NCBI GenBank assembly: GCA_964383635.1
Contig: CAYLIG010000003.1
Location: 32,097 to 96,096, forward strand
Source of the DNA: an uncultured Christensenella sp.
GTDB taxonomy: Bacteria; Bacillota; Clostridia; Christensenellales; CAG-138
DNA: 64,000 nt
Direction of reading: 5' to 3'
Shown: positions 11,042 to 26,307 of the stretch, one piece after another
Position numbering within the stretch: the stretch's first letter is position 1
Layout: each line of letters starts with the position of its first letter
Notes under the pieces: model-generated
Told to the model about the DNA's origin: nothing
The model's database searches: none
Seen by the model: only the letters and a program-made list of their open reading frames with translations
Translations under genes and position numbers: made by a program

Positions 11042-11893
11042 TTAAATATACGACGCGATCAGTCGGTTCATCAGAGCCGGGTCGGTCTTTCGTTCCAGCA
11101 GCGGAATTCCGTGCTTGAGCACTTCGTTCTTCTGGTGAAACGTGCATTTTTCTTCGCGGTACAGAACGCCGAGGGGAATCTTTTCGTCAAACTCCATCGA
11201 CTTTTGCATCGCGGCGGCTTTGTCGGACGCGTCATAACCGTCGTCCAGCTCGTAAACACGCGCGTTGTACCAGCCGAACGTGTTGGTTTTGTTAAAGCTG
11301 ACGCAGGGCTGCAGGATGTCGACCAGCGCATAGCCGTTGTACGAAATCGCCTGTTTCATGAGGGAGATCAGCTGCGCCTTGTGCCCCGTAAAGCCGCGCG
11401 CGACAAATCCCGCGCCGCACGCAATCGCCGTCAGCATCGGGTTCAGCGGCTCGTTCATGTTTCCGTCGGTCTGTACGCCGGTCACCATGCCCTCTATCGA
11501 GGTGGGCGACGCCTGCCCTTTGGTCAGGCCGTAGATCTGGTTGTCGTGCACAAAGTGCGTGATGTCGACATTTCTGCGGATATTGTGCAAAAAGTGGTTC
11601 CCGCCTTCGCCGTAGGAGTCGCCGTCGCCGGTATCCACAATCACAGTCAGCGCTTCGTTGGCAATCTTCGCCGCAACCGCGGCGGGAAGCGAGCGCCCGT
11701 GGAGCCCGCAAAACGAGTTGGCGGAGAGATACTGCGGCGTTTTTGCCGCCTGACCGATGCCCGCCGCCAGCAGAACGCCGGAGGGTTCTTTGCCCAGCTC
11801 TTCAAGCGCGGTCTTCAGGCAGTCGAGAATGACAAAGTTTCCGCAGCCCGGACACCAGGCTGTTTCATAGGTGCAAAAAGACTCCGTGCTCAT
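11042..11893 (-). CDS. 2-oxoacid:ferredoxin oxidoreductase beta subunit (TPP-binding)
   Basis: WCPGCGNF, GIGQ, HGR, GDGD..GEGGNH, DNQIYGLTKGQ.SPT, LQPCVSFN. Confidence 0.94.
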   Translation of the reverse strand: MSTESFCTYETAWCPGCGNFVILDCLKTALEELGKEPSGVLLAAGIGQAAKTPQYLSANSFCGLHGRSLPAAVAAKIANEALTVIVDTGDGDSYGEGGNHFLHNIRRNVDITHFVHDNQIYGLTKGQASPTSIEGMVTGVQTDGNMNEPLNPMLTAIACGAGFVARGFTGHKAQLISLMKQAISYNGYALVDILQPCVSFNKTNTFGWYNARVYELDDGYDASDKAAAMQKSMEFDEKIPLGVLYREEKCTFHQKNEVLKHGIPLLERKTDPALMNRLIASYI

Positions 11894-13566
11894 TTTGACT
11901 CCTCCTTACGCACGCGATCCACGATCTCCTGCGCGGAAATCTGCCTGCCGTCGTATTTTAGGATGCTGTTTGTGCAGGCAATCCCCGTCTGTTCGCGAAT
12001 CAAGCCCGCCAACTGTCCCGTCGCATTCTGTTCAACGTTGATCACGCGTCCGGCATTTGACGCTTTTTCCAGCAGCAGTTTTTGCGGAAGCGGATAAACG
12101 TCTCCAAACACGAGCGCGGCATAACGCCCCTTGCCGTCTGCGTTGAGCAGCGCAATCGCCTCCGTCATCGGGCCCCAAACGGACCCCCAGCCGATCAGCA
12201 GCGTTTCATAGCCGTCCGTGCCAATGAATTCCGGCTCCTGCAGCTCCTGTCGGATTCCATCCAGCTTCTTCATGCGCTTGTCCATCATTTTCGTGCGCAC
12301 TTCTGCGGATTCCGTGATCCAGCCGCGCTCGTCGTGCTCATCGCTGTCGGCCGAGACAAGATGCTTCGACAGCCCCGGAATCAGCCGCGGGGAGATTCCG
12401 TTTTCGGTGTAACGGTAGCGAAGGTATTCCCCGCCGTCGTATTGCCCGCCCTCCGAATCCGCCACGCTGATTCTGGTCGGGTCAAACGGCTCTACCGTAG
12501 CAGTGGCGTCGCCCAGATATTGATCGCTCAGCAAAATCACGGGAATTTGATACCGTTCCGCCAGATGAAAAGCGCGCATGGTCTGGTAAAACGCGTCCGC
12601 CGCGCTGCGCAGCGCGATCACCACTCTGGGAAATTCACCCTGCGAGGCGGAGATGACGAAGCGTAAATCGCTCTGCTCGGTCCGCGTCGGCAGCCCCGTC
12701 ACGGGGCCGGGGCGCTGCACGTCGATCACCACAAGCGGAATCTCCGCCATGCCGGAAAGCCCCAGCGCCTCTACCATCAGCGAAAATCCGCCGCCGGAGG
12801 TGCCCGTCATCGCGCGCGCCCCCGCGTAGGAGGCGCCGATTGCCATGTTGATTGCGGCGATTTCATCCTCCGCCTGCTCCACCACCAGCCCCGCCTCGTC
12901 GCCGAGCGCCGCAAGCGTCTCCATGATCGATGTTGAAGGCGACATCGGATAGGCCGAATAGAACCGGAGTCCCGCCGCAACGGCGCCCAGCGCCACGGCA
13001 TTGCTGCCGGAAACCAGCATCCAATCCTGATATTTCCCGTCGAGATGCTCATAGCGCTTTTCGGCGATTTGATATCCCTCCTGCAGCGCCCTGACGTTGA
13101 TTTCAATCAACTGCTGCTTGACAAACGCGCGGAGCACCTCCTCCGCGCCCTCCGGCGATTCTCCGAATAATTTCAAAAGGATGCCGACCGCAATGCTCCC
13201 CGCGACGCGCGGATTGCCGAGCTGCTTCGCCATCCCCTCCATGTCGAATTTCATCATGCGCGGATCGTCGGCGGAGAGTTTGCCGTCGCAAAGAATGAAC
13301 CCGTCTTCCTTTAATTGATTCCGGTGCTGCCGGATTGTCTCGTCGTCCATCGCGATGATGCCGTCCAGACGATCGCTGTGCGAATACACCGGCTTGGTAT
13401 CAAACCGAATCAGCGAAAAGTTATGTCCGCCGCGCACGCGGGACATGAAATCCCGTATGGTGAACACATAATAACCGGATCGCTTGAGCAGTCTTTCCAG
13501 TATGGCCGCCGTCGTTTCAATTCCCTGCCCCGCGGCGCCTCCTATCAGCAAATTATACATCGGCAT
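11890..13566 (-). CDS. 2-oxoacid:ferredoxin oxidoreductase alpha subunit (gamma-alpha fusion)
   Basis: GGAAGQGI, SRVRGGHN, AYPMSPST, EDEIAA, TSGGGFSLM.E, QRPGP.TGLPTRTEQSD. Confidence 0.94.
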   Translation of the reverse strand: MPMYNLLIGGAAGQGIETTAAILERLLKRSGYYVFTIRDFMSRVRGGHNFSLIRFDTKPVYSHSDRLDGIIAMDDETIRQHRNQLKEDGFILCDGKLSADDPRMMKFDMEGMAKQLGNPRVAGSIAVGILLKLFGESPEGAEEVLRAFVKQQLIEINVRALQEGYQIAEKRYEHLDGKYQDWMLVSGSNAVALGAVAAGLRFYSAYPMSPSTSIMETLAALGDEAGLVVEQAEDEIAAINMAIGASYAGARAMTGTSGGGFSLMVEALGLSGMAEIPLVVIDVQRPGPVTGLPTRTEQSDLRFVISASQGEFPRVVIALRSAADAFYQTMRAFHLAERYQIPVILLSDQYLGDATATVEPFDPTRISVADSEGGQYDGGEYLRYRYTENGISPRLIPGLSKHLVSADSDEHDERGWITESAEVRTKMMDKRMKKLDGIRQELQEPEFIGTDGYETLLIGWGSVWGPMTEAIALLNADGKGRYAALVFGDVYPLPQKLLLEKASNAGRVINVEQNATGQLAGLIREQTGIACTNSILKYDGRQISAQEIVDRVRKEESK

Positions 13567-13927: not shown

Positions 13928-15235
13928 TCAGCTCACGCCGGCCAGAATGTCATCGATGCTCTTGATCGGGATGATGAGCGTCCAGCCGGAGGCTGCGGTG
14001 TCGTCCATCTTGGAGAGGTTCATCTCCGTGGTGCCCTTGCGCTGGCCGTTTGAGAAGTCCACGCTGCCGCCGAACGGGTTCTGAATCGGCGCGGATTCCA
14101 TCGCGTCCATAAAGCTCGCCCAGGTCAGGTCTTTCCCGGCGCGCTCCAGACCCTGACAGAATACGCTGCCCGCGATCCAGCCGGTCATGGCAAACGCGTT
14201 CATGTCCGCTTCGGTCGCGCCGACGAGCGGCATGTACTTATAGAAATTGACAAACTCTTCGGTGGTCAGGTCGGTGGTGTCCACCCAGCCGAGTCCATAG
14301 ATGCCCGCGCCTTCCGTCTTCATGAGCTTCTGCACATGCTCGGCGTTGGCGTCGGTGAGCGTCTTGGAGACGTTGACATAGGTGGTCAAAACGGGCTTCA
14401 TGATGTCCTGCTTCTCCATCTCCTTGATCAGCACGGGGAAGGTCGCCTGGATCATGGCCGCGATGACCATGTCGCAATCCTTCACCTTTGCAACCTGCGC
14501 GGAGGCGTCGGTCGCGCCCGCCTGGATGGTTTCGGAGACAAGCGTTACGCCGTATTTTTCCGCGGCGACCTGAATGCCTTCAAAGAGCGACTTGCCCGCA
14601 TCATCGTTGGTGTAGACAACGCCGACGGTCTTTGCATTGAAGTAGCCCTTTGCATAGGCAACCATAACCTGGCCTTCGGTGGTGTAGATGGGCTGAATCG
14701 GGAACGAGGAGCGGTCGTTGCCTTCGGCCTTATCCTGATAGAGCTGGCCGATGCCCGTTGCGTAGTAAACGGTCGGGATGCCGAGTTCCTTCATTTCGTC
14801 CAGCGTTGCTGCGACGACGGGCGTTCCGAAGTGGCCGACGATGGCGAACACTTTGTCGTCATAGAAGAACTTTTCAAAGGCCGCGATGCCTTTTTCTGGC
14901 GAGAATTCATCGTCCGTATGGATGTACTTGATGGTTCTGCCGGCGATGCCGCCGTTGTCGTTCACCATCTTGAAATAGGCTTCCATGCCGTACTTAAACG
15001 GTACGCCGACGGGCGCATACGCGCCGGAGACGGCGATGCTGTTTGCGATGAGAACTTCCGTATCCGTAACGCCCTGCGTCGGAGCCGGTTCTTCCGTTGC
15101 GACGGGTTCCGCGACGGCTTCCTGCGTTGCTTCGGCTGCCGCGGGTTCTGTGGTTGCGGGCTGTGTTTGCGGTGCGCAGGCGAAAACGGAGCCGAGCATC
15201 AGAAACACCAAAATCAATGATACGATCTTTTTCAT
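13928..15235 (-). CDS. Liv/branched-chain-type ABC transporter substrate-binding lipoprotein
   Basis: Lipobox VFAC, AxxG.YAP.G.P...G..AYF..VN.NGGIAGRTI...DDEF.P; type I periplasmic-binding fold. Confidence 0.9.
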   Translation of the reverse strand: MKKIVSLILVFLMLGSVFACAPQTQPATTEPAAAEATQEAVAEPVATEEPAPTQGVTDTEVLIANSIAVSGAYAPVGVPFKYGMEAYFKMVNDNGGIAGRTIKYIHTDDEFSPEKGIAAFEKFFYDDKVFAIVGHFGTPVVAATLDEMKELGIPTVYYATGIGQLYQDKAEGNDRSSFPIQPIYTTEGQVMVAYAKGYFNAKTVGVVYTNDDAGKSLFEGIQVAAEKYGVTLVSETIQAGATDASAQVAKVKDCDMVIAAMIQATFPVLIKEMEKQDIMKPVLTTYVNVSKTLTDANAEHVQKLMKTEGAGIYGLGWVDTTDLTTEEFVNFYKYMPLVGATEADMNAFAMTGWIAGSVFCQGLERAGKDLTWASFMDAMESAPIQNPFGGSVDFSNGQRKGTTEMNLSKMDDTAASGWTLIIPIKSIDDILAGVS

Positions 15236-15247
15236 GGTCTTCCTCCT

Positions 15248-15493
15248 TTTATTTGTTTCGTTTATGAATGGCAAAATTCGCCAAATCATTCCAATAGATT
15301 GCCTGAGACTGCTTATTATTTGTTTCGTTTATGAATGGCTAAATCGCCAAATCACCCCGATAGATTGCTCAAGACTGCTTATTATTTGTTTCGTTTATAA
15401 ATGGCTAGATTCGCCAAATCGCCCCGATAGATTGCCTGAGATTGCTTATTATTTGTTTCGTTTATGAATGGCAAGATTCGCCAAATCATTCCA
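15248..15493. repeat. Tandem array of about 3.7 units of 66-67 bp (ATTTGTTTCGTTTATGAATGGC.A.ATTCGCCAAATC..cC.ATAGATTGC.tgAGAcTGCTTATT)
   Basis: Anchor ATTTGTTTCGTTTAT at 15251, 15318, 15384 and 15451. Abuts the RBS of the SBP gene; no spacers. Confidence 0.95.
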
Positions 15494-15522
15494 AATAACG
15501 ACGTGCGATTAGCGATGCGCAA

Positions 15523-16257
15523 TCAGCCCTTGCCAAGATACGCGTCGATGATGCGTTCGTCGCGCAGCAGTTCGTCCGCCGGGCCCTCGATGGAAACGCT
15601 GCCAACCTCCAGCACATAGGCGTAATGCGCGATCTTGAGCGACTGCTTTGCGTTTTGCTCCACGAGCACGACCGTAACGCCCTGCGCGTTGAGCGACTGA
15701 ATGATCGAAAAAATGTCCCGGACGATTAACGGCGCAAGGCCGAGCGAAGGTTCGTCCAGCAATAGAATCTTCGGGTTCGCCATGAGCGCGCGCCCGATGG
15801 CAAGCATCTGCTGTTCCCCGCCGGAGAGCGTGCCCGCAATCTGCTTTGCGCGCTTGCCGAGAATCGGGAACCGCTCGTAAACCATCGCAAGATTCTTTTT
15901 GCGCTCCGCCGCGCTTACCGTAAAACCGCCCGCGATGAGGTTGTCCTCCACCGTGAGGTCAAAGAAGATCTGTCGGCCTTCGGGGGACTGCACAATGCCG
16001 CGGGAGACGAGCTTCTCCGCCGGAAGATTGCTGATCGTCTTGTCGTAGGACTGGATTTCGCCGCCGGACGGGGACACGAGCCCGGAGATTGCGCGCAGCA
16101 GGCTGGATTTACCCGCGCCGTTCGCGCCGAGTATGGCGACGATTTCGCCTTCGTTGATCTGCATGTTGACGTGCTTGAGCGCTTCGATCCGCCCGTAGGA
16201 AACGGACAGGTTTGAAATCAGAAGCGCAGACTTGGAGGCATCCGTTTGCTGTCTCAT
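15523..16257 (-). CDS. livF: Liv-type ABC transporter ATPase (LivF-like)
   Basis: GANGAGKS, PEGRQIF..LTVEDNL, LSGGEQQMLAIGRAL, LDEPSLGLAP. Confidence 0.93.
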   Translation of the reverse strand: MRQQTDASKSALLISNLSVSYGRIEALKHVNMQINEGEIVAILGANGAGKSSLLRAISGLVSPSGGEIQSYDKTISNLPAEKLVSRGIVQSPEGRQIFFDLTVEDNLIAGGFTVSAAERKKNLAMVYERFPILGKRAKQIAGTLSGGEQQMLAIGRALMANPKILLLDEPSLGLAPLIVRDIFSIIQSLNAQGVTVVLVEQNAKQSLKIAHYAYVLEVGSVSIEGPADELLRDERIIDAYLGKG

Positions 16258-17042
16258 GCTTCGTCCTCCTTGCCGAGATACGCGTCCTGCACAAGCGGGT
16301 TTTTCTGGATTTCCGCCGCGGTGCCCTCCGCCAGCTTTTTGCCGAACGAGATGGCGCATATCCGGTGGCAGAGCCCCATAACGAGCTTCATGTCGTGCTC
16401 CACCAGCAAGATTGCGCAGTGGTGATCCCGCGCGATGCCGCGGATGAGCTCGGTGAGCCGTTCGGTCTCGGTGTCGTTCAATCCGCCCGCCGGTTCGTCC
16501 AGAATGATCAGGCTCGGCTCGCACATGAGCGTTCGCGCCAGTTCGATGAGCTTGAGCACGCCATACGGCTGCGCGCCCGCATACTCGTTTGCAATGTGAT
16601 CGAGTCCGCAGTAGGCTAGGGCGTCCATCGCCTTTTTGCGCAGTTCCCGTTCCTGTTTTCTCGCCCACGGCATGGCAAACATATTCGCCAGCGCGCCCGC
16701 TTTGAATTCGGTATGCGCGCCCAGAAGAACGTTGTCTATAATGGGCAGTTCGCGGATGATCTCGGTGTTTTGAAATGTTCGCACCAGCCCGAGGCCGATG
16801 ATCTTGTGCGGCGGCATGCCGTTGAGCAGGTGCTCTTGTCCCTTCCGGTCGGTAAAGCGGATTTCGCCCGCGTCCGGCTTATAAAACTGCGTAATGCAGT
16901 TGAACACCGTCGTCTTGCCCGCGCCGTTCGGGCCAATAAGCCCGTAGATTTCATGGCGGTCGATGCTGAACGAAAGATCGTCCACCGCGCGAAGGCCGCC
17001 GAAGCTGATTGAGAGGTTTTTGACCGATAATACCTGAGCCAT
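16254..17042 (-). CDS. livG: Liv-type ABC transporter ATPase (LivG-like)
   Basis: FGGLRAVDD, GPNGAGKTT, RTFQN, LDEPAGG, VEHDMKLV, V.DAYLG. Confidence 0.93.
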   Translation of the reverse strand: MAQVLSVKNLSISFGGLRAVDDLSFSIDRHEIYGLIGPNGAGKTTVFNCITQFYKPDAGEIRFTDRKGQEHLLNGMPPHKIIGLGLVRTFQNTEIIRELPIIDNVLLGAHTEFKAGALANMFAMPWARKQERELRKKAMDALAYCGLDHIANEYAGAQPYGVLKLIELARTLMCEPSLIILDEPAGGLNDTETERLTELIRGIARDHHCAILLVEHDMKLVMGLCHRICAISFGKKLAEGTAAEIQKNPLVQDAYLGKEDEA

Positions 17043-17045
17043 ACC

Positions 17046-18035
17046 TTATGCCTCCCCCTTCTTCGCGCCGGCGCGCCGTTTTTGAACGGCGTCTATGATT
17101 CCCCGCGGAATGAAGATGAGTCCGCGCGGATAGAAGATCAGGATCACGATCATCAGAATGCCGACGATCAGCAGCGGCAGACCCGGCACCTCGCCGAAGA
17201 TCGGCATTTCTTTCATCAGTTCCGGCAGCCCGTGCATGACCACCGCGCCGACGACCGCGCCGCCGACGGTTGCCGCGCCGCCGATGACGACCAGAGCGAT
17301 GAGGTTGAGCGAAAGCCCCGCCGTCCAGACCGTCGGGTCGACATGGCGGAAAAAGTGCACATAGCAGACGCCCGCGAGGCCGGCAAAGACGGAGCTGATG
17401 GCAAAGCTGATGAGTTTGTATTGAAAGAGGTTGACGCCCATCGCCATCGCGGCCGAGCGGCTGCTCTTCATGGCAATCATGGCGCGTCCTGTCGACGAGT
17501 GCACGAGGTTATGCACCAGCATCATCAGCACCACGAGCAGGCAGACCATAAACGTATACATGCCGTTTTTCGTAAGCGTTTGTCCGAATATGGTGGGATA
17601 CGCCGCCGACGCGCCGGAAAACCCGCCGGTGAACCAGTCCATCTCGATGAAAAGCTGGCGCAGGATTTCGCCGAAGCCGAGCGTCGCAATCGCCAGATAA
17701 AACCCTTCCAGCCGCACGGCGATGGCGCCGAGGATGAGGCCGATGACGAGCGGAGCCGCCACCGCGATGAGCACGGAGAGCAAAAACGGCAGTTCCAGCT
17801 GCTTGGTCAAATACGCGCTCATGTAGGCGGAGAGCCCCATAAACGCCGCGTGTCCCAGCGAGATCTGGCCCGAGTAGCCGAGCAGCACGTTGATGCCAAG
17901 TCCCGCAATGGCGGTGTAAACCATGCTGGCGGCAAGGGTAACGGTCGCCGTCGGCACGCCGCGCAGGATCACCGGCAGCAAAAATGCCGCACCGACCAAC
18001 AGATATTGCAGATATTTATTACGAATCAGGCGCAT
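17046..18035 (-). CDS. livM: Liv-type ABC transporter permease (LivM-like)
   Basis: GYSGQISLGHAAF, RLEGFYLAIATLGFGE, multiple TM helices. Confidence 0.9.
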   Translation of the reverse strand: MRLIRNKYLQYLLVGAAFLLPVILRGVPTATVTLAASMVYTAIAGLGINVLLGYSGQISLGHAAFMGLSAYMSAYLTKQLELPFLLSVLIAVAAPLVIGLILGAIAVRLEGFYLAIATLGFGEILRQLFIEMDWFTGGFSGASAAYPTIFGQTLTKNGMYTFMVCLLVVLMMLVHNLVHSSTGRAMIAMKSSRSAAMAMGVNLFQYKLISFAISSVFAGLAGVCYVHFFRHVDPTVWTAGLSLNLIALVVIGGAATVGGAVVGAVVMHGLPELMKEMPIFGEVPGLPLLIVGILMIVILIFYPRGLIFIPRGIIDAVQKRRAGAKKGEA

Positions 18036-18045
18036 GCGTTTCTCC

Positions 18046-18921
18046 TTACACCTTTTTAACGATTTTCTTGCCAAACAGGCCGTTCGGGCGGAGCACAATA
18101 AACAGCAGAATCAGCGCATACAGCAGCGGCAGGGACCACTTTGTTGATACATAGTATCCCAGCAGGTTGTTTGCAATGCCGATTATGAAGCTGGCTACCA
18201 CCGGCCCGTAGAAGGTGGAGAAACCACCAAGAACCGCGGCGATAAACGAGTTGAGATGGATGCTGTCCATCATGGATACCGTGACGTTTTTCAGCGGGGC
18301 GACCATGACCGCCGCGAGGCAGCCGAGCGCGGTTGCAACCGCCCACGACCCGAGCGTGACGAGCTTGACCGGAATGCCCTGCAGGCGGGCGGTCTGCGGG
18401 TTGGACGCCGTTGCGCGCACCGCGACGCCCAGCGTCGTCTTCTCCAGTATGATGAAAAGCGCGGCCATGATGGCGCAGGTGATGCCGATGATCAGGAGCG
18501 AGTTCGGCAGGATCTTTACGCCGCCGATGTCCAGCGCGGACGCGGCGATAAACTTGCTGAACGGCGTTTCGTTTGCGCCAAAGAGCATCGGCGCCAGTCC
18601 CTGAAAGATCATGATCAGCGCAAGCGTAATCATTTCGCGACTCAGATTGGTGATGTTTTGCTTGCTGTTCATCAGGAAGTGATCGATCAGCGCGCCGAGC
18701 AGCATCGCAATGCCCATCGCCGCGGGAACGGCCGCCCACATCGGCATATGGAGCTCCAGAATCAGACCGGTGCAGACATAGGCCATAAACATGCCCAGCG
18801 TACCCTGCGAAAAGTTGATGATCTTCGCCGTCTGAAAAATGAGCACCAACCCCATCGATGCAAGAGCGTACATGCTGCCGGTTTCGATGCCGCCGACAAC
18901 CTGCTGGAAGAATTCGACCAT
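18046..18921 (-). CDS. livH: Liv-type ABC transporter permease (LivH-like)
   Basis: GSMYALAS.GLVLIF...IINFSQG, G.AVRATASN...ARLQGI, AAVLGG. Confidence 0.9.
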   Translation of the reverse strand: MVEFFQQVVGGIETGSMYALASMGLVLIFQTAKIINFSQGTLGMFMAYVCTGLILELHMPMWAAVPAAMGIAMLLGALIDHFLMNSKQNITNLSREMITLALIMIFQGLAPMLFGANETPFSKFIAASALDIGGVKILPNSLLIIGITCAIMAALFIILEKTTLGVAVRATASNPQTARLQGIPVKLVTLGSWAVATALGCLAAVMVAPLKNVTVSMMDSIHLNSFIAAVLGGFSTFYGPVVASFIIGIANNLLGYYVSTKWSLPLLYALILLFIVLRPNGLFGKKIVKKV

Positions 18922-18959
18922 AGACTGCAACTCCTTCTGGGTGGTTGTAATTTCGAATA

Positions 18960-18975
18960 ATGACATCAATGTCAT
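18960..18975. promoter_or_regulatory. Candidate operator ATGACATCAATGTCAT in the liv leader
   Basis: 7-bp-arm palindrome; TGAC-N6-GTCA recurs at 19180-19195. Confidence 0.5.
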
Positions 18976-19046
18976 AGCAAAGCGATTTTTGTAAATATTA
19001 ATAGAAGATTCGGTGATTTGGAGCCTGTTTTTTCGGGTTCACTTGC

Positions 19047-19076
19047 ATAATAACCCGCAGATAGTCCTGTTGTCAA
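19047..19076 (-). promoter_or_regulatory. Probable sigma-A promoter of the liv operon
   Basis: Minus strand TTGACA-N18-TATTAT. Confidence 0.5.
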
Positions 19077-19141
19077 TACCGATTCTGCGGATAAAAAAGA
19101 CACAATTCGGCGTAAAAAACTAAAAAAATCGAAATTCGGCA

Positions 19142-19195
19142 TTGAAATTCATTTTATCGTCTGCTATACTGGCAGCGAAATGACGATGTTGTCAC
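19142..19195 (+). promoter_or_regulatory. Probable sigma-A promoter of the fabH-like operon plus downstream operator
   Basis: TTGAAA-N17-TATACT with TG extension, then ATGACGATGTTGTCAC (19180-19195). Confidence 0.6.
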
Positions 19196-19299
19196 ATTTC
19201 CGTTTTTCAAAGTCTATCGAACGACAAAGCGTAATTGAATCATTCATTCAACAGAATCAAATAAACACTTGGGGATCCATTGGAAAGGGGAGTCATCGT

Positions 19300-20331
19300 A
19301 TGCCTGATCAAGGTATTGGCGTATGGAGCTATGGTCTCTATTTGCCACAGCGCGTCATGACGGCGCAGGAAATTTCGGAGGCGACAAAGGGCGTCTGGAG
19401 CGAGGATGCCGTGAAAAACAAGCTCGGCATTGTGCAAAAGCGAATTCCCGGAGAAGACGACGGAACGCAGGAGATGGCCGTTCGCGCGGCAAAGGACGCG
19501 CTTGAGCGCGGCGGAGTCGATCCGCGCAGCATCGATTTGATCCTTTGCGTCGGCGAAGAGTGGAAGGAATATCCGCTCACCACCTCCGCGCTCTACGTGC
19601 AGGGGCAGATAGGCGCGGACAACGCTTGGGGCATCGACGTGCAAAATCGCTGCTGCACCACCTGCTCCGCCATCAAAATTGCAAAAGATATGATGACCGC
19701 GGACGAAGAGATCAACACCGTCCTTGTCGTCGGCGGTTATCGCAACGGCGATTTTGTGGACTATACGGACAAGGATATGTCCATGATGTATAACCTCGGC
19801 GCCGGCGCCGGCGCGCTCATCCTCAAAAAGGGCATGGACCGCAACCTCGTTCTAGGCTCGCATATCATGGGAGACGGCAGCCTCGCGCGCGACGCTGGCG
19901 TCGAAATCGGCGGCATCTGCCGTCCGTTTACGCCGGACAACGTGGCGGAAGGATACCGCTCGCTCCGCCTGATGGACGCCGCGCACATGAAAGCGCGCCT
20001 CAACGAGGTTTCGGTTGCCAACTGGTATCGCTGCATCGACGAGTCCCTTCGCAAATCCGGCGGCCTGACGAGGGCGGACATCGGATATCTGGCGATTCTG
20101 CACTTCAAGCGCTCCCAGCACGATGCCATGGTCGCCGAGCTGGGTCTGACGCCGGAGCAGACCGTCTATCTGGAAGAATACGGCCATATCGGGCAGATCG
20201 ACCAGATCCTCTCCCTCGCGCTGGGTCTTGAGCAGGGCAAAATTCAAGACGGCACGCTCGTAACCATGATTGCGGCGGGAATCGGCTATGTCTGGGCGTC
20301 CACCTGCATTCGCTGGGGACAGGCAGAATAA
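19300..20331 (+). CDS. 3-oxoacyl-ACP synthase III (FabH/OleA-like thiolase-fold) family protein
   Basis: DVQNRCCTT (catalytic Cys), ILHFK, YGHIG, AAGIGYVW. Confidence 0.85.
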   Translation: MPDQGIGVWSYGLYLPQRVMTAQEISEATKGVWSEDAVKNKLGIVQKRIPGEDDGTQEMAVRAAKDALERGGVDPRSIDLILCVGEEWKEYPLTTSALYVQGQIGADNAWGIDVQNRCCTTCSAIKIAKDMMTADEEINTVLVVGGYRNGDFVDYTDKDMSMMYNLGAGAGALILKKGMDRNLVLGSHIMGDGSLARDAGVEIGGICRPFTPDNVAEGYRSLRLMDAAHMKARLNEVSVANWYRCIDESLRKSGGLTRADIGYLAILHFKRSQHDAMVAELGLTPEQTVYLEEYGHIGQIDQILSLALGLEQGKIQDGTLVTMIAAGIGYVWASTCIRWGQAE

Positions 20332-20370
20332 CCGCACCCGCTTCGACAGAAAAAGAAAGGAACTCCGTTC

Positions 20371-21696
20371 ATGTTTGATTTCCGCACCAAATATCCGGAA
20401 AAGTGTATCACCGCCGAGCAAGCGCTCGAGATGGTCAAGAGCAACGACGTCATCACCGTCGGCATGGCGAGCGCAGAGCCCAATGAGTTTCTCATGAAGC
20501 TGCACACCATTGCCGAGCGCGTGCGCGACGTGACCATCACCAGCAGTCTTGCCACCGTGCAGGCGCCGTATCTCACGGATTTTCTGCGCTATCAGAACGC
20601 CTTCCGCATCGACTCCTGGTTCTATTCGGGCCAGCTGCGCGCCCTGCAGCACACGGGGCGCATCTCGTTTATTCCAAACCACCTGCATCTGGCGGGCTTT
20701 AAGCGCAACACCGCGGTGAAAACCAACATTTTCGTCTGCTCCGCTTCCATGCCGACGGAGGAAGGCATCATGCTCTCCTGCTCCAACGTGTATGAAATGG
20801 AGATGGTCAAGTCCGCGGATATCGTGATTCTCGAAGTGAGTCCGAACATCCCGCATACGATGGGCGACCACCTCGTTTCCTATGAGGACGTGGATTATAT
20901 CATCGAGAGCGATTATTATCTGCCCGCGATTACGGACGTTACGCCAAACGAGAAAGACCGCGAAATCGGGCGGCATATCGCCGAGCTTGTCCACGACGGG
21001 GACTGCCTGCAGATCGGCATCGGCGGCATTCCGAACGCCGTATGCGAGTTTCTTTCGGACAAGAAAGACCTCGGCGTACACACCGAAATGATGACGACCG
21101 GCATCATGCGTCTCATGAAAAAAGGCGTTGTTACAAACCGGAGGAAGACCCTCTGCCCCGGCGTCTCCGTTTGCTGCTTTGGCATGGGCACGCAGGAACT
21201 GTACGAGTATATGCACAACAACCCGCAGATTTGCATCAAGGCGGGCTCCTGGGTCAACGATCCGCATGTAATCGGAAAAAACGACAACCAGGTGTCGATC
21301 AACACCTCCATCGAGGTGGATCTGACGGGACAGTGCTGCTCCGAAAGCCTCGGCCATATCCAGTTTTCCGGAACCGGCGGTCAGGCGGATACCGCCATCG
21401 GCGCGCAGAATGCGAAAAACGGACGCTCGTTCATCGCGCTCTACTCCACCGCTATGGTGAAAAACCCCAATACGGGAGAGCGCGAGGAAATCTCCAAGAT
21501 CGTTCCCCTGCTGAAAAACGGCGCCACCGTTTCGCTCAGCCGAAACGATGTGGACTATGTCGTAACAGAATACGGCGCGGTCTCTTTGCGCGGGCTGGCC
21601 GTTGAAGAACGCGCGAGGCGCCTGATCTCCATTGCGCATCCAAAGTTTCGCGCGGAGCTCTCCGTGCAGGCGCGCGAATACATGTTTATGCCGTAA
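20371..21696 (+). CDS. Acetyl-CoA hydrolase/transferase family (4-hydroxybutyrate CoA-transferase-like)
   Basis: LQIGIGGIPNAV, LGVHTEM (catalytic Glu), SINTSIEVDLTGQ, SGTGGQ.D, VVTEYG. Confidence 0.92.
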   Translation: MFDFRTKYPEKCITAEQALEMVKSNDVITVGMASAEPNEFLMKLHTIAERVRDVTITSSLATVQAPYLTDFLRYQNAFRIDSWFYSGQLRALQHTGRISFIPNHLHLAGFKRNTAVKTNIFVCSASMPTEEGIMLSCSNVYEMEMVKSADIVILEVSPNIPHTMGDHLVSYEDVDYIIESDYYLPAITDVTPNEKDREIGRHIAELVHDGDCLQIGIGGIPNAVCEFLSDKKDLGVHTEMMTTGIMRLMKKGVVTNRRKTLCPGVSVCCFGMGTQELYEYMHNNPQICIKAGSWVNDPHVIGKNDNQVSINTSIEVDLTGQCCSESLGHIQFSGTGGQADTAIGAQNAKNGRSFIALYSTAMVKNPNTGEREEISKIVPLLKNGATVSLSRNDVDYVVTEYGAVSLRGLAVEERARRLISIAHPKFRAELSVQAREYMFMP

Positions 21697-21721
21697 CCGC
21701 GGCAGTCGGGAGGCGATTCAT

Positions 21722-22537
21722 ATGGCAACCTTTACGTTTGAAGGCAAGGAAGTCTATTACGAGGATCACGGCGCGGGCGAGCCGCTGCTGGTGCTCAACG
21801 GCATCTTCATGAGCTGCGCCTCGTGGGACAAGTTTATCCCCGCGTTTTCCAAAAGATGCCGCCTGCTGCTGCTCGATTTCTTCGACCAGGGACGAACCGC
21901 AAAGATGGAGCACGACTATTCGCAGCAGATTCAGGTTGCGCTTGTCGAGGCGTTCATGCGCCATCTCGGGCTTGCGCGCTGGGACATCATCGGCATCTCC
22001 TATGGCGGGGAGGTCGCGCTGGCGTATGCCGCCGCCTACCCGGGCAAGGTGCGAAAGCTGATTCTGTCCAACACCGCGCCGAACACGTCCGAATGGCTGC
22101 GGGATATCGGACACAGCTGGGAATATGCCTGCAACAGCCACAGCGGCAGACAATTTTTCAAAACCTGCATTCCGATTGTGTATTCGCCGCAGTTCTATGT
22201 GAAAAACTATGCCTGGGCAAGCGCGCGAGAGGCGCTGTTTGAGCGGGTATTTACAAGCGAAATCTACGACGCGTTCAGCAGGCTCATCCGCTCCGCGGAA
22301 GGATACGACGTTCGAGCCCGGCTCAAGGACATCACGGCGCAGACGCTTGTCGTCTCTTCGGAGTTTGATTATGTGACCCCGCTGTATCAGCAGCAGGCGC
22401 TGGTGGCGGGCATCGGCGGCGCCGCGCACGCGATGATTCCGGACGCGGGGCACGCCGTCATGTATGAAAAACCGACGGAGTTTATCTCTCTCGTGCTGGG
22501 ATTTGTCGCGTCGGATACGGACGTTCAGATCATCTGA
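21722..22537 (+). CDS. Alpha/beta-fold hydrolase
   Basis: LNG, LDFFDQG, GISYGG nucleophile elbow, D.VTP, AGHA catalytic triad pattern. Confidence 0.88.
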   Translation: MATFTFEGKEVYYEDHGAGEPLLVLNGIFMSCASWDKFIPAFSKRCRLLLLDFFDQGRTAKMEHDYSQQIQVALVEAFMRHLGLARWDIIGISYGGEVALAYAAAYPGKVRKLILSNTAPNTSEWLRDIGHSWEYACNSHSGRQFFKTCIPIVYSPQFYVKNYAWASAREALFERVFTSEIYDAFSRLIRSAEGYDVRARLKDITAQTLVVSSEFDYVTPLYQQQALVAGIGGAAHAMIPDAGHAVMYEKPTEFISLVLGFVASDTDVQII

Positions 22538-22622
22538 TCCATGCGGTTTGTCGCGTCATATACGGACGTACAGATAAACGGATAACAACGATTGTATGAA
22601 AATTTGAAATGGAGGCTGAAAC

Positions 22623-23348
22623 ATGGCTAAGCGACTGGAAGGAAAGGTTGCGCTCGTAACAGGCGGCGCGGCGGGCATTGGCGCGGAGTGCGCAAAACGG
22701 TTTGCGCGGGAGGGCGCAATCGTCTACGCCGGAGATCTTCGCCCGCTTACATTTGAGCAGGAGGGCGTGCAGTTCATTTCGCTGAACGTAACAAACGTGG
22801 AAAGCTGCGACGCGGCGGCTGGCGAGATCATCGCAAAGCACGGCAAAATCGATATCCTCGTCAACAACGCGGGCATCACGCGCGACGCGCTGATTCAGAA
22901 GATGACGGACGATATGTGGGACGCGGTCATCTCCGTCAACCTCAAGGGCGTGTTTAACCTGACTCGCATCGTGGGTCCGGCCATGATGGAGTCCGGATAC
23001 GGTTCCATCATCAACATCTCCTCCGTTGTCGGCGTATACGGCAACATCGGGCAGACGAACTATGCCGCAACCAAGGCGGGCGTCATCGGCATGACAAAGA
23101 CCTGGGCAAAAGAATTCGCAAGAAAAGGCGCGAATGTGCGCTGTAACGCAATCGCGCCGGGATATTGCATGACGGATATTCTCAAGACGGTTCCGCAGGA
23201 TCTGCTGGACAAGTTCGCCAAGATGACCATGCTCGGCCGTCTCGGCCAGCCGGAGGAGATTGCCGACGCGGCGCTGTTTTTAGCGAGCGACGAATCGAGC
23301 TATGTAACCGGTCACGTGCTGGAAGTCAACGGCGGCATGCGGCTCTAA
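22623..23348 (+). CDS. fabG: SDR oxidoreductase, FabG / acetoacetyl-CoA reductase-like
   Basis: TGGAAGIG, NNAGITRD, SSVVG..GN.GQTNYAATK (YxxxK), NAIAPG. Confidence 0.88.
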   Translation: MAKRLEGKVALVTGGAAGIGAECAKRFAREGAIVYAGDLRPLTFEQEGVQFISLNVTNVESCDAAAGEIIAKHGKIDILVNNAGITRDALIQKMTDDMWDAVISVNLKGVFNLTRIVGPAMMESGYGSIINISSVVGVYGNIGQTNYAATKAGVIGMTKTWAKEFARKGANVRCNAIAPGYCMTDILKTVPQDLLDKFAKMTMLGRLGQPEEIADAALFLASDESSYVTGHVLEVNGGMRL

Positions 23349-23352
23349 GCCG

Positions 23353-23973
23353 TCACGCCCGGCGCGGTTTTGTGCCGTTTGCGAGTAAAAAGAGCGTCTG
23401 CTGGCAGTGAAGCCGTATGTTTTGCATGGTGAGCTGCGAGTAGACGCTCTGAAAAATAAAGATGTCGGTCACAAAATGCACGCAAAGGTCGGCGAGGATG
23501 GCGGATTCCACATTTTGATCGATCAGCCCGCGCTCCTTGTCGAATTCGATTCCGATGAGAAACATGTCCCGATAGCGGTTTTGCAGCTGGCGAATCAGTC
23601 CCTGCGAAACGGGATGCGAGCACCCGTAAAGCTGCTGGCCGAGATCGATATGATCCGGATGCATCAAAAGAAATTCACTGTCGCGCAGGTAAAACGCCTG
23701 AAAGAATTCCAGAAAAGGCGCTTTCTTGTAGAACTCATATGCGGGAGAAACATACTCCGCGCGCTCGGCGCGCAGCGTGTCAAACACGTAGATATACAAA
23801 TCCTCTTTGGAAGGAAAATACTGGTAGATACTTCCGCGGGCAATCTTTGCGTCTTTGACGATATTGGACAGATTTCCCTCGCGGACATTGCGAACGCGGA
23901 ACTCCTTGATCGCGGCGCTCAGGATTCGCTCCTTCTTTTCTTCCGAAAGGTTGTTGAACGTTGAATTTGGCAT
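23353..23973 (-). CDS. TetR-family transcriptional regulator
   Basis: TFNNLSEEKKERILSAA..EF...IVKDAKIARGSIYQYF.SKEDLY. Confidence 0.92.
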   Translation of the reverse strand: MPNSTFNNLSEEKKERILSAAIKEFRVRNVREGNLSNIVKDAKIARGSIYQYFPSKEDLYIYVFDTLRAERAEYVSPAYEFYKKAPFLEFFQAFYLRDSEFLLMHPDHIDLGQQLYGCSHPVSQGLIRQLQNRYRDMFLIGIEFDKERGLIDQNVESAILADLCVHFVTDIFIFQSVYSQLTMQNIRLHCQQTLFLLANGTKPRRA

Positions 23974-24092
23974 AACGGCCTCCATTTGGATTTTACAGGT
24001 ATTTAACGGTTATTATCAGAACACAGGTGTCACCCGAAGTCAAGCGATTTTTCTCGTTTGCGCTCCGGGTCGAACCGGAAACGGAGTATGAA

Positions 24093-25295
24093 ATGGAAAA
24101 GGTATACATTGTATCGGCAAAGCGCAGCGCCATCGGCGCGTTTAACGGCGGGCTCTCCACCGTATCCGCCGGTAAACTCGGCGCGGCAGTCGCCAAAGAC
24201 GTACTTGCTGCGGCCGGCGTCGCGCCAGAGCATCTGGACGAAGTCATCGTCGGAAACATTCTTCCCGCAGGCTGCGGACAGGGTGTTGCGCGGCAGGTTT
24301 CTATTCACGCGGGCGTACCGGTCGAAATCCCCGCCTGGGGCGTATCCATGGCCTGCGGTTCCGGCATGAAGGCCGCGATGTCGGCGGCGGCGGCAATCGC
24401 GTCCGGCATGGGAAATCTGTATCTCGCCGGCGGTACGGAAAACATGAGCCTCGCGCCATATCTCATTCCCGGCGCGCGCCAGGGTCTGCGCATGGGCGAG
24501 AAGACCATCGTCGACCATATGGTATTCGATGCGCTGACGGACGCGTTTGAGGGAATCCATATGGGCATCACCGCCGAAAACATTGCCCGTCAATATGGCA
24601 TCACGCGCGAGGAGCAGGACGCATTTGCGTATCAATCGCAGCTAAAAGCCATTTACGCCGTGGACAAGGGCGTGTTCGCCGGGGAGATTACGCCGATTAA
24701 GATCGTCAACCGCAAGGAAGAGACCGTATTCGACACGGACGAATACCCCAACCGCAAGACGACGCCCGAAAAACTTGCGTCCCTCAAACCCGCGTTTCTG
24801 CCCGGCGGCACCGTGACGGCGGGCAACGCCTCCGGCATCAACGACGGCGCGGCGTTCCTCGCACTGGCTTCCGAGCGGGCGCTTGCGGATTACGGTCTGA
24901 CGCCGCTTGCGGAAATCGTCGCCTGGGGACAGGGCGGCGTGGATCCGTCCGTCATGGGTCTCGGCCCGGTGCCCGCGGTGCGCGCGGCGCTGAAGATGGC
25001 GGGATTAAGCCTTGCGGATATGCAGCGCATCGAGCTCAACGAGGCCTTTGCCGCACAGTCGCTCGGCGTTGTGAAGCTGCTCAGCGAAGAACACGGCGTG
25101 CCCCGCGAAGCGATTCTTGAGCGCACCAATCCCAACGGCGGCGCAATCGCGCTCGGCCATCCGGTCGGCGCCTCGGGCGCGCGCATCATCGTTACGCTGC
25201 TTGCCGGCATGCGCGCGGCGAAAGAAGAGCTAGGCCTTGCCTCGCTCTGCATCGGCGGCGGCATGGGAACGGCGGTAATTTTAAAAAGCTGCTGA
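24093..25295 (+). CDS. thl: Acetyl-CoA C-acetyltransferase (thiolase)
   Basis: ACGSGMKA (Cys), TAGNASGINDGAA, ELNEAFAAQ, NGGAIALGHPVGASG, LCIGGGMG. Confidence 0.94.
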   Translation: MEKVYIVSAKRSAIGAFNGGLSTVSAGKLGAAVAKDVLAAAGVAPEHLDEVIVGNILPAGCGQGVARQVSIHAGVPVEIPAWGVSMACGSGMKAAMSAAAAIASGMGNLYLAGGTENMSLAPYLIPGARQGLRMGEKTIVDHMVFDALTDAFEGIHMGITAENIARQYGITREEQDAFAYQSQLKAIYAVDKGVFAGEITPIKIVNRKEETVFDTDEYPNRKTTPEKLASLKPAFLPGGTVTAGNASGINDGAAFLALASERALADYGLTPLAEIVAWGQGGVDPSVMGLGPVPAVRAALKMAGLSLADMQRIELNEAFAAQSLGVVKLLSEEHGVPREAILERTNPNGGAIALGHPVGASGARIIVTLLAGMRAAKEELGLASLCIGGGMGTAVILKSC

Positions 25296-25357
25296 GTCGG
25301 CGGCTGATTTTGTGTATACTGGTACTGCAGAACACCAAACCGGGAGGAAAACGAGTA

Positions 25358-26242
25358 ATGAAGCAATATGAAGTGAAAACGATTTCCATAGGCGACGAAA
25401 CTCTGGCATACCGCGCCTGCGGCGAAGGAGAGACCGTCGTTCTGATTCATGGCAACATGTCCTCGTCCGCGCATTGGCAAACGACGATGGAGCATCTCGA
25501 GGGCGGCTATCGCGTGTTTGCGCCGGATCTTCGCGGGTTTGGCGAGAGCACCTACCATCACGGCTTCGATTCCTTGCGCGAGCTGGCCATGGATTTGGAG
25601 CGGTTTCTCGACGTGGCGGGCATCGACACCTGCTCGCTCGTGGGCTGGTCCACCGGCGGAGGCGTGGCGCTGGAGTTGGCCGCGAGCCTGCCAAATCGCG
25701 TAAAAAAGGCGATTCTTGTAGAGAGCGTGCCGCCGACAGGGTATCCGATGTTTAAAAAGGACGCGGCTGGGCAGCCGATCGCCGGCGAGCTGCTGAAAAC
25801 CAAAGAGGAGATCGCCGCCGATGCCGTGCAGGTAGCGCCCGTGCTCGGCGCATATACAACGGGCAACCGGGAGCTGATGCGCATCATCTGGAACGCCGTC
25901 ATCTACAATCGGGTTCAGCCCCCGGCAGAGGATTACGAGCAGTATCTGGACGCCATGATGAAGCAGCGAAACCTCGTCGATATCGACTATTCGCTGTTGA
26001 CGTTCAACATGACAAGCGAGCCTACCGGCTCTGCCGCGGGCAGCGATCGCTTAAAGAACATCCAGTGTCCCGTAACGATGATTCACGGGCGGCTTGATCT
26101 CGTTGTGCCTTACGACTGGGCAGTTGCGGCGCAGAAGGCCGTCCCCGGCGCGACGCTGATTACGCTCGATTCGACGGGGCATTCCCCGATGACCGACGAC
26201 CCGCAGCTGTTTTTTGAAGCGCTCTCCGGCAGTCTGCGATAG
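25358..26242 (+). CDS. Alpha/beta hydrolase resembling Bacillus intracellular PHB depolymerase PhaZ
   Basis: LIHGNMSSS.HW, DLRGFGESTY, GWSTGGG, LVES....GYPMFKKD..GQPI...KTKEEIA.D.VQVAPVL, QRNLVD.DY.L.TFN match the Bacillus PhaZ pattern as I recall it (not aligned computationally). Confidence 0.75.
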   Translation: MKQYEVKTISIGDETLAYRACGEGETVVLIHGNMSSSAHWQTTMEHLEGGYRVFAPDLRGFGESTYHHGFDSLRELAMDLERFLDVAGIDTCSLVGWSTGGGVALELAASLPNRVKKAILVESVPPTGYPMFKKDAAGQPIAGELLKTKEEIAADAVQVAPVLGAYTTGNRELMRIIWNAVIYNRVQPPAEDYEQYLDAMMKQRNLVDIDYSLLTFNMTSEPTGSAAGSDRLKNIQCPVTMIHGRLDLVVPYDWAVAAQKAVPGATLITLDSTGHSPMTDDPQLFFEALSGSLR

Positions 26243-26282: not shown

Positions 26283-26307
26283 CCACCCGCAAAGCGGGTG
26301 GTTTTTT
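26283..26307 (+). terminator. Intrinsic terminator
   Basis: CCACCCGC-aaa-GCGGGTGG followed by TTTTTT. Confidence 0.85.

Follow-up and report, generated by a model that had tools for sequence, protein, structure and literature searches.

Background

Among the major carbon stores of sludge, sediments and bioplastic waste are polyhydroxybutyrate (PHB) and polyesters related to it. By which genes do strict anaerobes consume PHB breakdown products? To our knowledge, these genes are essentially unassigned. The closest physiology described is that of Ilyobacter. According to PMC10096456, 3-hydroxybutyrate (3HB) is dismutated there, two 3HB giving two acetate and one butyrate, and fermentation of PHB or 3HB by I. 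delafieldii and I. polytropus goes back to Stieb and Schink 1984, Janssen and Harfoot 1990, and Janssen and Schink 1993. A second source (PMC3035301) has Ilyobacter polytropus fermenting the 3HB monomer and not PHB. No genes assigned to this physiology were found in the literature searched. Here we describe a locus at positions 13928-26242 of a 64-kb stretch of DNA (the window), taken from contig CAYLIG010000003.1 of an uncultured Christensenella sp. It joins an ATP-binding cassette (ABC) importer of the Liv type to a FabH-like enzyme, a coenzyme A (CoA) transferase, two hydrolases, a reductase and a thiolase. We propose that it is a TetR-controlled catabolic unit, through which an anaerobe of gut or sludge that makes no polyhydroxyalkanoate (PHA) would take up 3HB esters or oligomers and ferment them to acetyl-CoA with H2 as the sink. 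On this proposal as a whole we stand evenly poised between belief and doubt. Full-text literature searches found no published characterisation of the operon or of the PRK06840 family to which its FabH-like enzyme belongs.

A conserved gene set

Do the genes of the locus belong together? Relatives were collected with the FabH-like protein as query against one genome per species, which gave 234 relatives; 80 loci were kept, and the window proteins were compared with them by tblastn. Gene presence was counted in the 39 loci that have at least 9 kb on either side of the FabH-like gene. Since the loci were picked through that gene, the presence figures are conditional frequencies. The Liv genes occur in 37-38 of the 39 loci, the CoA-transferase gene in 36, the gene of the first hydrolase (Hyd1) in 35, the PhaZ-like and FabG-like genes in 34 each, and the thiolase gene in 30. 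The original prediction had listed these genes and treated them as one locus. All of them are present by open reading frame (ORF) listing, Pfam and NCBIfam, and the synteny survey supports the single locus, the same set recurring in 30-38 of the 39 well-flanked loci.

The closest loci, with 90-97% protein identity to the window proteins, are labelled Christensenellaceae. Other loci are assigned, by the labels of their database records, to Clostridia, Acholeplasmatales/Izemoplasmatales, Erysipelotrichaceae, Synergistaceae, Treponema, Sphaerochaeta, Flexilinea and Propionibacteriaceae. The loci span several phyla, and their genes stand in at least five different orders. The commonest is one co-directional operon, thl-fabG-fabH-like-livHMGF-SBP-CoAT-hyd1-phaZ, where SBP stands for the substrate-binding protein and CoAT for the CoA-transferase. 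The divergent order of the window is common to its close relatives and to metagenome-assembled genomes (MAGs) of Synergistaceae, Lachnospiraceae, Flexilinea and Propionibacteriaceae. The set has stayed together through at least five rearrangements and across several phyla, which argues for functional coupling. Judged by this synteny across phyla and by a shared operator described below, the importer and enzyme genes are one conserved functional unit.

The unit is sparsely distributed. Of 300 genomes drawn evenly from the class, 5 have a match to the FabH-like family above its cut-off, and relatives in several phyla are 62-90% identical. A trait so rare in its class and so similar across phyla is patchy and probably a mobile accessory. 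Two FabH-like matches, G250:C7:22093-23103 and G196:C24:4732-5739, contain one in-frame stop each (TAG in one, TAA in the other). They lie in small genomes (1.1-1.2 Mb) of the same class and of one genus, and could be pseudogenes, match overhang or recoding.

Might the genes nevertheless be chance neighbours, with the Liv system importing branched-chain amino acids for an adjacent 2-oxoacid:ferredoxin oxidoreductase (OFOR) and the enzyme genes unrelated to it? The permease and ATPase families are indeed of the Liv type, and OFOR alpha/gamma and beta genes (11042-13566) lie directly downstream of the SBP gene on the same strand. However, a strong intrinsic terminator with a 17-bp stem (13854-13818, minus strand) parts them from the SBP gene, and OFOR genes occur in none of the 39 related loci, against 37-38 for the linkage of Liv and enzyme genes. 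The operator is also shared, and the SBP fails the LivJ model. Linkage to the OFOR cluster was rejected on the absence from related loci and the terminator, and chance neighbourhood, already largely refuted by synteny, seems to us scarcely credible.

Importer and enzymes

Gene families were assigned from Pfam and NCBIfam profiles, and gene starts were adjusted with the help of the N-termini of homologues and of the Shine-Dalgarno context. The importer genes all lie on the minus strand: a livH-like permease (18046-18921; BPD_transp_2, E 2.4e-32), a livM-like permease (17046-18035; BPD_transp_2, E 3.7e-43), a livG-like ATPase (16254-17042; ABC_tran and BCA_ABC_TP_C), a livF-like ATPase (15523-16260; ABC_tran) and the SBP lipoprotein (13928-15238; Peripla_BP_6, E 1.1e-48). 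One Peripla_BP_6 protein, two BPD_transp_2 permeases and two ATPases make up the architecture of a HAAT-family ABC importer (TC 3.A.1.4 type). The longest ORF of the SBP reaches 15289, with MKK at 15238 as the likely start, and the lipobox N-terminus is kept in homologues. The 284 bp that separate livF from the SBP gene form the SBP leader and contain a tandem array of 67-bp units, 3.6 copies at 15249-15488 (TRF score 375, 89% matches). An Rfam search of the region, array included, returned zero family matches.

What does the importer carry? The SBP scores 39.6 bits against the LivJ model NF011933, whose cut-off is 477. Its AlphaFold2 (AF2) model has a pLDDT of 95. Sequence and fold agree on its best match in the PDB, 4n03, which is entitled 'fatty acid ABC transporter substrate-binding protein'; the aromatic-acid binder RPA0668 outranks LivJ as a match, and LivJ structures come about 29th by fold. 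Since identity to all solved relatives is only about 15-20%, the 4n03 match is a lead and not an assignment. By profile and model, the SBP is not of the LivJ type and is nearest to a fatty-acid binder. It had been predicted that the system imports something other than amino acids, and this part of the import claim is supported, as the SBP fails the LivJ model and its closest solved relative binds a fatty acid. In the proposed scheme, an acid or an ester would be captured by the SBP lipoprotein and carried in by the LivHMGF-like ABC system.

Two hydrolases could act on such an ester, both encoded on the plus strand. The PhaZ-like esterase (25358-26242) scores 328 bits against NF050089, the intracellular short-chain-length (scl) PHA depolymerase of the Bacillus type, with a cut-off of 300. 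It matches PDB 8ynv, a 'poly(3-hydroxybutyrate) depolymerase', over residues 25-303 (E 4.5e-80). Its GWSTGG aligns with GWSMGG of 8ynv, the nucleophile elbow, and its GHSP with the GHSP that holds the catalytic His. It is the single NF050089 gene in the host genome. The comparison with Bacillus-type PhaZ thus agrees with the identity first given to this gene: the protein falls among the intracellular scl-PHA depolymerases of the Bacillus type, and hydrolysis of PHB or 3HB oligomers is predicted. Hyd1 (21722-22537; Abhydrolase_1) is an alpha/beta-hydrolase of the carboxylesterase type, its closest PDB match being the metagenomic esterase MGS-M2 (4q3l, E 1e-67). No signal peptide was found in any of 51 homologues of the PhaZ-like protein or of 61 homologues of Hyd1. 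The final 42 nt of the hyd1 gene (22497-22538), stop included, recur 45 nt downstream (22542-22583) at 81% identity.

Three further enzymes, also on the plus strand, could lead from 3HB to acetyl-CoA. The CoA-transferase (20371-21696; AcetylCoA_hyd_C, PF13336, E 8.2e-58) matches 4-hydroxybutyrate CoA-transferases in the PDB at E 8e-90 and stays at 272.8 bits against TIGR03948, butyryl-CoA:acetate CoA-transferase, with a cut-off of 674.8. By these matches it is a family I enzyme, of the 4-hydroxybutyrate / butyryl-CoA:acetate type at family level. The FabG/PhaB-like 3-oxoacyl reductase, a short-chain dehydrogenase/reductase (22623-23348; adh_short_C2, E 4.6e-62), passes the FabG subfamily model NF009466 (234.9 bits, cut-off 222) and falls short of the PhaB models TIGR01829 (251.1 bits vs 302.1) and NF042966 (205.9 vs 436). 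The acetoacetyl-CoA-type thiolase (24093-25295; Thiolase_N and Thiolase_C) passes TIGR01930, acetyl-CoA C-acyltransferase (433.9 bits, cut-off 240.55), and falls short of the PhaA equivalog NF042967 (342.8 bits, cut-off 740). It is the sole strong thiolase in the host genome.

The gene families are what we observe, and from them we infer the following chemistry. After import, the cytoplasmic serine esterases PhaZ-like and Hyd1 would split ester bonds to give 3HB. The 4-hydroxybutyrate-type CoA-transferase would form 3HB-CoA at the expense of acetyl-CoA, the FabG/PhaB-like reductase, working in reverse, would oxidise it to acetoacetyl-CoA, and the thiolase would yield two acetyl-CoA, from which acetate kinase could make ATP. 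The substrate is most likely a set of short (R)-3HB esters or oligomers, which PHB breakdown by other organisms would supply.

The same families leave room for another substrate. The operon might degrade some other small ester or lactone, derived from a C4-C6 hydroxy or oxo acid. Candidates include alkyl acetoacetates, lactones and fragments of polyesters, 4-hydroxybutyrate among them, and the similarity to PhaZ would then reflect ester chemistry only. In favour of this, the nearest matches of the CoA-transferase are 4-hydroxybutyrate CoA-transferases, that of Hyd1 is a generic metagenomic carboxylesterase, and the reductase, transferase and thiolase all score under the 3HB-specific equivalog cut-offs. 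Yet neither a 4-hydroxybutyryl-CoA dehydratase nor any other pathway-specific gene is recurrent in the 80 loci. Moreover, the thiolase, the (R)-type reductase and the MaoC-type hydratase of related loci indicate a 3-hydroxyacyl-CoA intermediate. We consider such a substrate quite unlikely, and keep 3HB esters or oligomers as the preferred one.

Scavenging or storage

Is the PhaZ-like enzyme used to mobilise a store of the cell's own? The host genome searched is 3.02 Mb and 94.6% complete. No match to the PHA synthase PhaC (TIGR01836 or PF07167) was found in the window or in the whole of this genome, so that the lack of phaC, first noted for the window, holds genome-wide. The surveys for PhaC and for the extracellular PHB esterase family PF10503 also covered 40 other carrier genomes. 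PhaC is missing in 39 of the 40, the exception being Clostridium homopropionicum, whose cluster has no Liv genes. With no PHA synthase, there are presumably no granules in the host; and as the PhaZ-like gene belongs to an uptake operon, its substrate must come from outside the cell. Cytoplasmic esterases and an importer, in cells that make no polyester themselves, suggest that an ester would cross the membrane. Hence the gene content suggests scavenging, not the mobilisation of a store.

The fate of the electrons can be approached in the same way. No acyl-CoA dehydrogenase (Bcd) or MaoC was found in the host genome, which has one weak ECH_1-family match outside the window, two genes for acetate kinase and five of the [FeFe]-hydrogenase type. 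With Bcd and MaoC lacking, reducing equivalents probably leave as H2 by way of the [FeFe]-hydrogenases. The host route would be purely oxidative, from 3HB to two acetate and H2, for which we calculate about -35 kJ/mol from standard formation energies. The oxidation gains favourability at low H2, and would suit an H2-producing partner of methanogens.

Variant loci

Do the related loci add anything to the pathway? The recurrent extra genes in the 80 loci are those of MaoC, Bcd/Etf and regulators. A MaoC-type (R)-specific hydratase gene stands beside the cluster in 15 loci, and Bcd, EtfB and EtfA genes in 9-10. Taken with the FabG/PhaB-type reductase, these genes suggest that an (R)-3-hydroxyacyl-CoA is an intermediate and that a branch leads to butyrate; loci with MaoC and Bcd/EtfAB would thus send part of the carbon to butyrate. 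A minimal module is seen in a Tissierellales MAG (L036:5757-13104), in the order sigma-54 activator, MaoC, PhaZ-like, a short methyl-accepting chemotaxis protein (MCP)-signalling protein, FabH-like and a full-length chemoreceptor, with the importer and the CoA-transferase not nearby. Its chemoreceptor genes may serve chemotaxis toward the same substrate.

A different transport arrangement is found in Clostridium homopropionicum, the only PhaC-positive carrier (L060:7450-16163). Its order is hyd1, a PAS-sigma-54 activator, fabH-like, CoAT, MaoC, an AtoD/AtoA-type transferase and an AtoE-type transporter for short-chain fatty acids (PF02667, 603 bits); Liv genes and the PhaZ-like gene are absent from the stretch. 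That the AtoE-type transporter has taken the place of Liv argues for a short-chain acid, of the C4 type, rather than an amino acid. Could it then be a free acid? In such a scheme, the operon would take up 3-hydroxy or 3-oxo acids of short chain, for instance (R)-3-hydroxybutyrate or acetoacetate, that stem from host ketone bodies or from fermentation. The hydrolases would then have targets other than imported oligomers, and might work as thioesterases, in proof-reading or on minor esters. The AtoE- and AtoDA-type genes in place of Liv speak for it, as do the many carriers labelled as gut MAGs, the rarity of strong extracellular depolymerase matches in carriers, and the restriction of Ilyobacter polytropus to fermenting the monomer, not PHB, that PMC3035301 gives. 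On the other hand, two cytoplasmic esterases are kept in 34-35 of 39 loci, and a pathway for monomers needs none. The PhaZ-like protein also scores above the PHB depolymerase family cut-off, in hosts that have no endogenous polyester. We regard uptake of free acids, the main rival, as unlikely, and continue to prefer esters or oligomers.

Several points weigh against esters or oligomers of 3HB all the same. The AtoE-type replacement fits monomeric acids better than oligomers. The host genome has no PF10503 esterase and strong matches occur in only 3 of the 40 carrier genomes, so that oligomers must be released by other organisms. Many carriers live in the gut, a habitat not known to be rich in PHB, and free 3HB or small esters may be the real substrates there. 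The substrate is read from family membership and gene context only, and the FabG-like protein, the CoA-transferase and the thiolase are below the cut-offs of the PhaB, butyryl-CoA:acetate transferase and PhaA equivalogs. Finally, the pathway as drawn does not require the FabH-like enzyme, yet this enzyme is the best conserved of all, which means that something central is missing from the model.

The FabH-like enzyme

The FabH-like gene (19300-20331, plus strand) encodes 343 aa with the fold of ketoacyl-acyl carrier protein synthase III (KAS III). The protein scores 458 bits against NF005308/PRK06840 (cut-off 315) and 114.5 bits against the fabH model TIGR00747 (cut-off 292.1). A housekeeping FabH, with 295.2 bits against TIGR00747, is encoded elsewhere in the host genome, on contig C8 between accA and fabK. 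Mean column identity of the FabH-like protein is 77% over 34 homologues. It is the most conserved member of the gene set, and its invariant residues include Cys118, His268, His296 and Asp301.

Is the active site that of FabH? E. coli FabH from the K-12 record was aligned to the 34 homologues. Its Cys112 corresponds to Cys118, its Asn274 to His296 and its Ser279 to Asp301, each in 34/34; His244 falls on Leu267/His268 (34/34), with the register uncertain by one, and Trp32 on Ala37 (33/34). Lys214, Arg249, Lys256 and Lys257 of E. coli FabH, which we take to be its basic docking patch for acyl carrier protein (ACP), correspond to Glu236 (26/34), Ser272 (34/34), Ala279 (variable) and Glu280 (20/34). 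In each of five independent HMMER alignments to FabH structures, His296 coincides with the asparagine of GN. The Cys-His-Asn triad of FabH is therefore not kept, the Asn274 position being taken by an invariant His. The AF2 model (pLDDT 87.7) has the KAS III fold, and in Foldseek and VIA-align all KAS III structures tie (Z 36-38, root-mean-square deviation 2.2-2.5 A over 306-325 residues, 19-26% identity), so that a fold ranking cannot assign the subfamily. Matches in the ESM Atlas have only automatic '3-oxoacyl-ACP synthase' names. By these comparisons the protein is not a FabH or a fatty-acid condensing enzyme, and it probably does not use ACP.

A different precedent is given by CerJ and ChlB3, KAS III-like O-acyltransferases that form esters with a Cys-His-Asp site; the His-Asp pair of ChlB3 is likewise His296-Asp301 (PMC9573744). 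The ranges over which the FabH-like protein aligns to 3s3l and 7eqi are compatible with such a CerJ/ChlB3-type pair, at the level of ranges only. PDB segment searches for a residue-level alignment to CerJ or ChlB3 returned only FabH alignments or zero matches.

Does the precedent mean that the locus makes esters instead of breaking them? Thiolase and reductase would then produce (R)-3HB-CoA, and the FabH-like enzyme would condense or esterify it onto an imported acceptor, giving an oligomer or small ester without PhaC. The family is unstudied, the nucleophilic Cys and two His are kept, and ester-forming enzymes of this fold exist, as CerJ and ChlB3 show (PMC9573744). However, an SBP-dependent ABC system is an importer, and two esterases with a repressor-controlled divergent promoter suit catabolism. 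Variants have Bcd/Etf and MaoC, which are typical of fermentation, while ACP, a malonyl-CoA source and an exporter are all absent from the cluster. A biosynthetic role thus appears very improbable, and we return to a catabolic one.

What might the enzyme do in catabolism? Our best guess is that Cys118 mediates the transfer of 3-hydroxybutyryl between an oxygen ester and CoA, in one direction or the other. In the forward direction the protein would be a new CoA-dependent, ester-cleaving acyltransferase, which takes 3-hydroxybutyryl from the imported ester onto its Cys and releases it as 3HB-CoA. We put this forward tentatively, as possible rather than probable. It would explain why the FabH-like gene is the best conserved of the operon, and also the module of PhaZ-like, FabH-like and MaoC without a CoA-transferase in the Tissierellales MAG. 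If it is true, the acetyl-CoA of CoA transfer is saved, and the ATP gained per ester-bound unit is roughly doubled.

Control region and proposed transcription units

Between the livH-like and FabH-like genes lies a divergent control region (18961-19194) with two palindromes and two promoters. The palindrome TGACATCAATGTCA (18961-18974) is in the liv leader, and TGACGATGTTGTCA (19181-19194) lies ten bases past the plus-strand -10 element. The minus-strand promoter TTGACA-18-TATTAT runs from 19076 to 19047 and the plus-strand promoter TTGAAA-17-TATACT covers 19142-19170; they are the two best sigma-70-like sites in the 12.8 kb scanned. Thus TGACA-N4-TGTCA palindromes sit behind both divergent promoters, and the shorter pattern TGAC-N6-GTCA has exactly two matches in the window, both within this region.

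Which regulator might bind them? A TetR-family gene (23353-23973, minus strand; TetR_N, E 7.1e-11) lies convergent to the reductase gene. Loci L002-L008 and L010-L022 have the palindrome pair in the same intergenic region and a TetR homologue 49-94% identical to this one. Locus L001 retains one site, and the short locus L009 has none. In loci without this TetR, which have other gene orders, the sites are essentially absent; among loci of other orders, a different TetR is found in 30 and a PAS-sigma-54 activator in 11. This co-occurrence makes the TetR protein a candidate repressor acting on the paired palindromes. No conserved third operator was found in the gap between tetR and thl. The candidate there, the half-palindrome GAACACAGGTGTCA (24019-24032), is degenerate, with 2 mismatches to the consensus, is kept only weakly in L001 and L002, and was rejected.

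We propose that the locus consists of four transcription units, livHMGF-SBP, fabH-like-CoAT-hyd1-fabG, tetR and thl-phaZ. The last would be closed by an intrinsic terminator at 26283-26307 (plus strand), an 8-bp GC-rich stem followed by a T-run.

Comparison with known systems

What would follow if the proposal is true? The gene set would be a marker for scavengers of PHA fragments in digesters and guts, and its Liv-like system a candidate ABC importer for 3HB or its oligomers. It would also open an unstudied class of enzymes with the KAS III fold, mis-annotated everywhere as '3-oxoacyl-ACP synthase', and the role of the FabH-like protein is an interesting question.

Part by part, the locus resembles systems already described. 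The carboxylic-acid binders of the HAAT family, 4N03 from Thermomonospora curvata and RPA0668 with 4-hydroxybenzoate (4EVQ), are the best matches of the SBP, ahead of LivJ/LivK, although it is only about 15-20% identical to them. Like Bacillus-type PhaZ (8YNV/8YNW), the PhaZ-like esterase is cytoplasmic as predicted, lies above the family cut-off and has aligned motifs; unlike it, the enzyme belongs to a host without PHA synthase, its gene is part of an uptake operon and its function is predicted from sequence. The FabH-like protein shares with FabH and other KAS III enzymes, CerJ, ChlB3 and DpsC included, the fold and a nucleophilic Cys at the Cys112 position. It differs from them in its low identity (19-26%), in the loss of ACP-docking residues, in failing the fabH model and in a context that is catabolic and not one of polyketide or fatty-acid synthesis. 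Its H296/D301 pair has the H-x4-D spacing of ChlB3, and like CerJ and ChlB3 it is without the catalytic Asn, but His268 is kept as well.

As a whole, the locus follows the same logic of transporter, CoA-transferase and thiolase as atoDAEB of E. coli, and the Clostridium homopropionicum variant even carries AtoDA- and AtoE-type genes by its FabH-like gene. The transporter class and the transferase family differ, and the locus adds a reductase, two esterases and the FabH-like enzyme, under a TetR or sigma-54 regulator. The predicted chemistry is like that of Ilyobacter: 3HB would receive CoA, be oxidised to acetoacetyl-CoA and undergo thiolysis to acetyl-CoA, and the MaoC and Bcd/Etf of related loci would likewise give a butyrate branch. 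From Ilyobacter the present host differs in having neither the butyrate branch nor a detected extracellular depolymerase, while its locus has an ABC importer, two cytoplasmic esterases and the extra FabH-like enzyme. The kind of pathway, catabolism of PHB fragments or ketone bodies, is a known one, and it contains here an uncharacterised enzyme family, that of the FabH-like protein.

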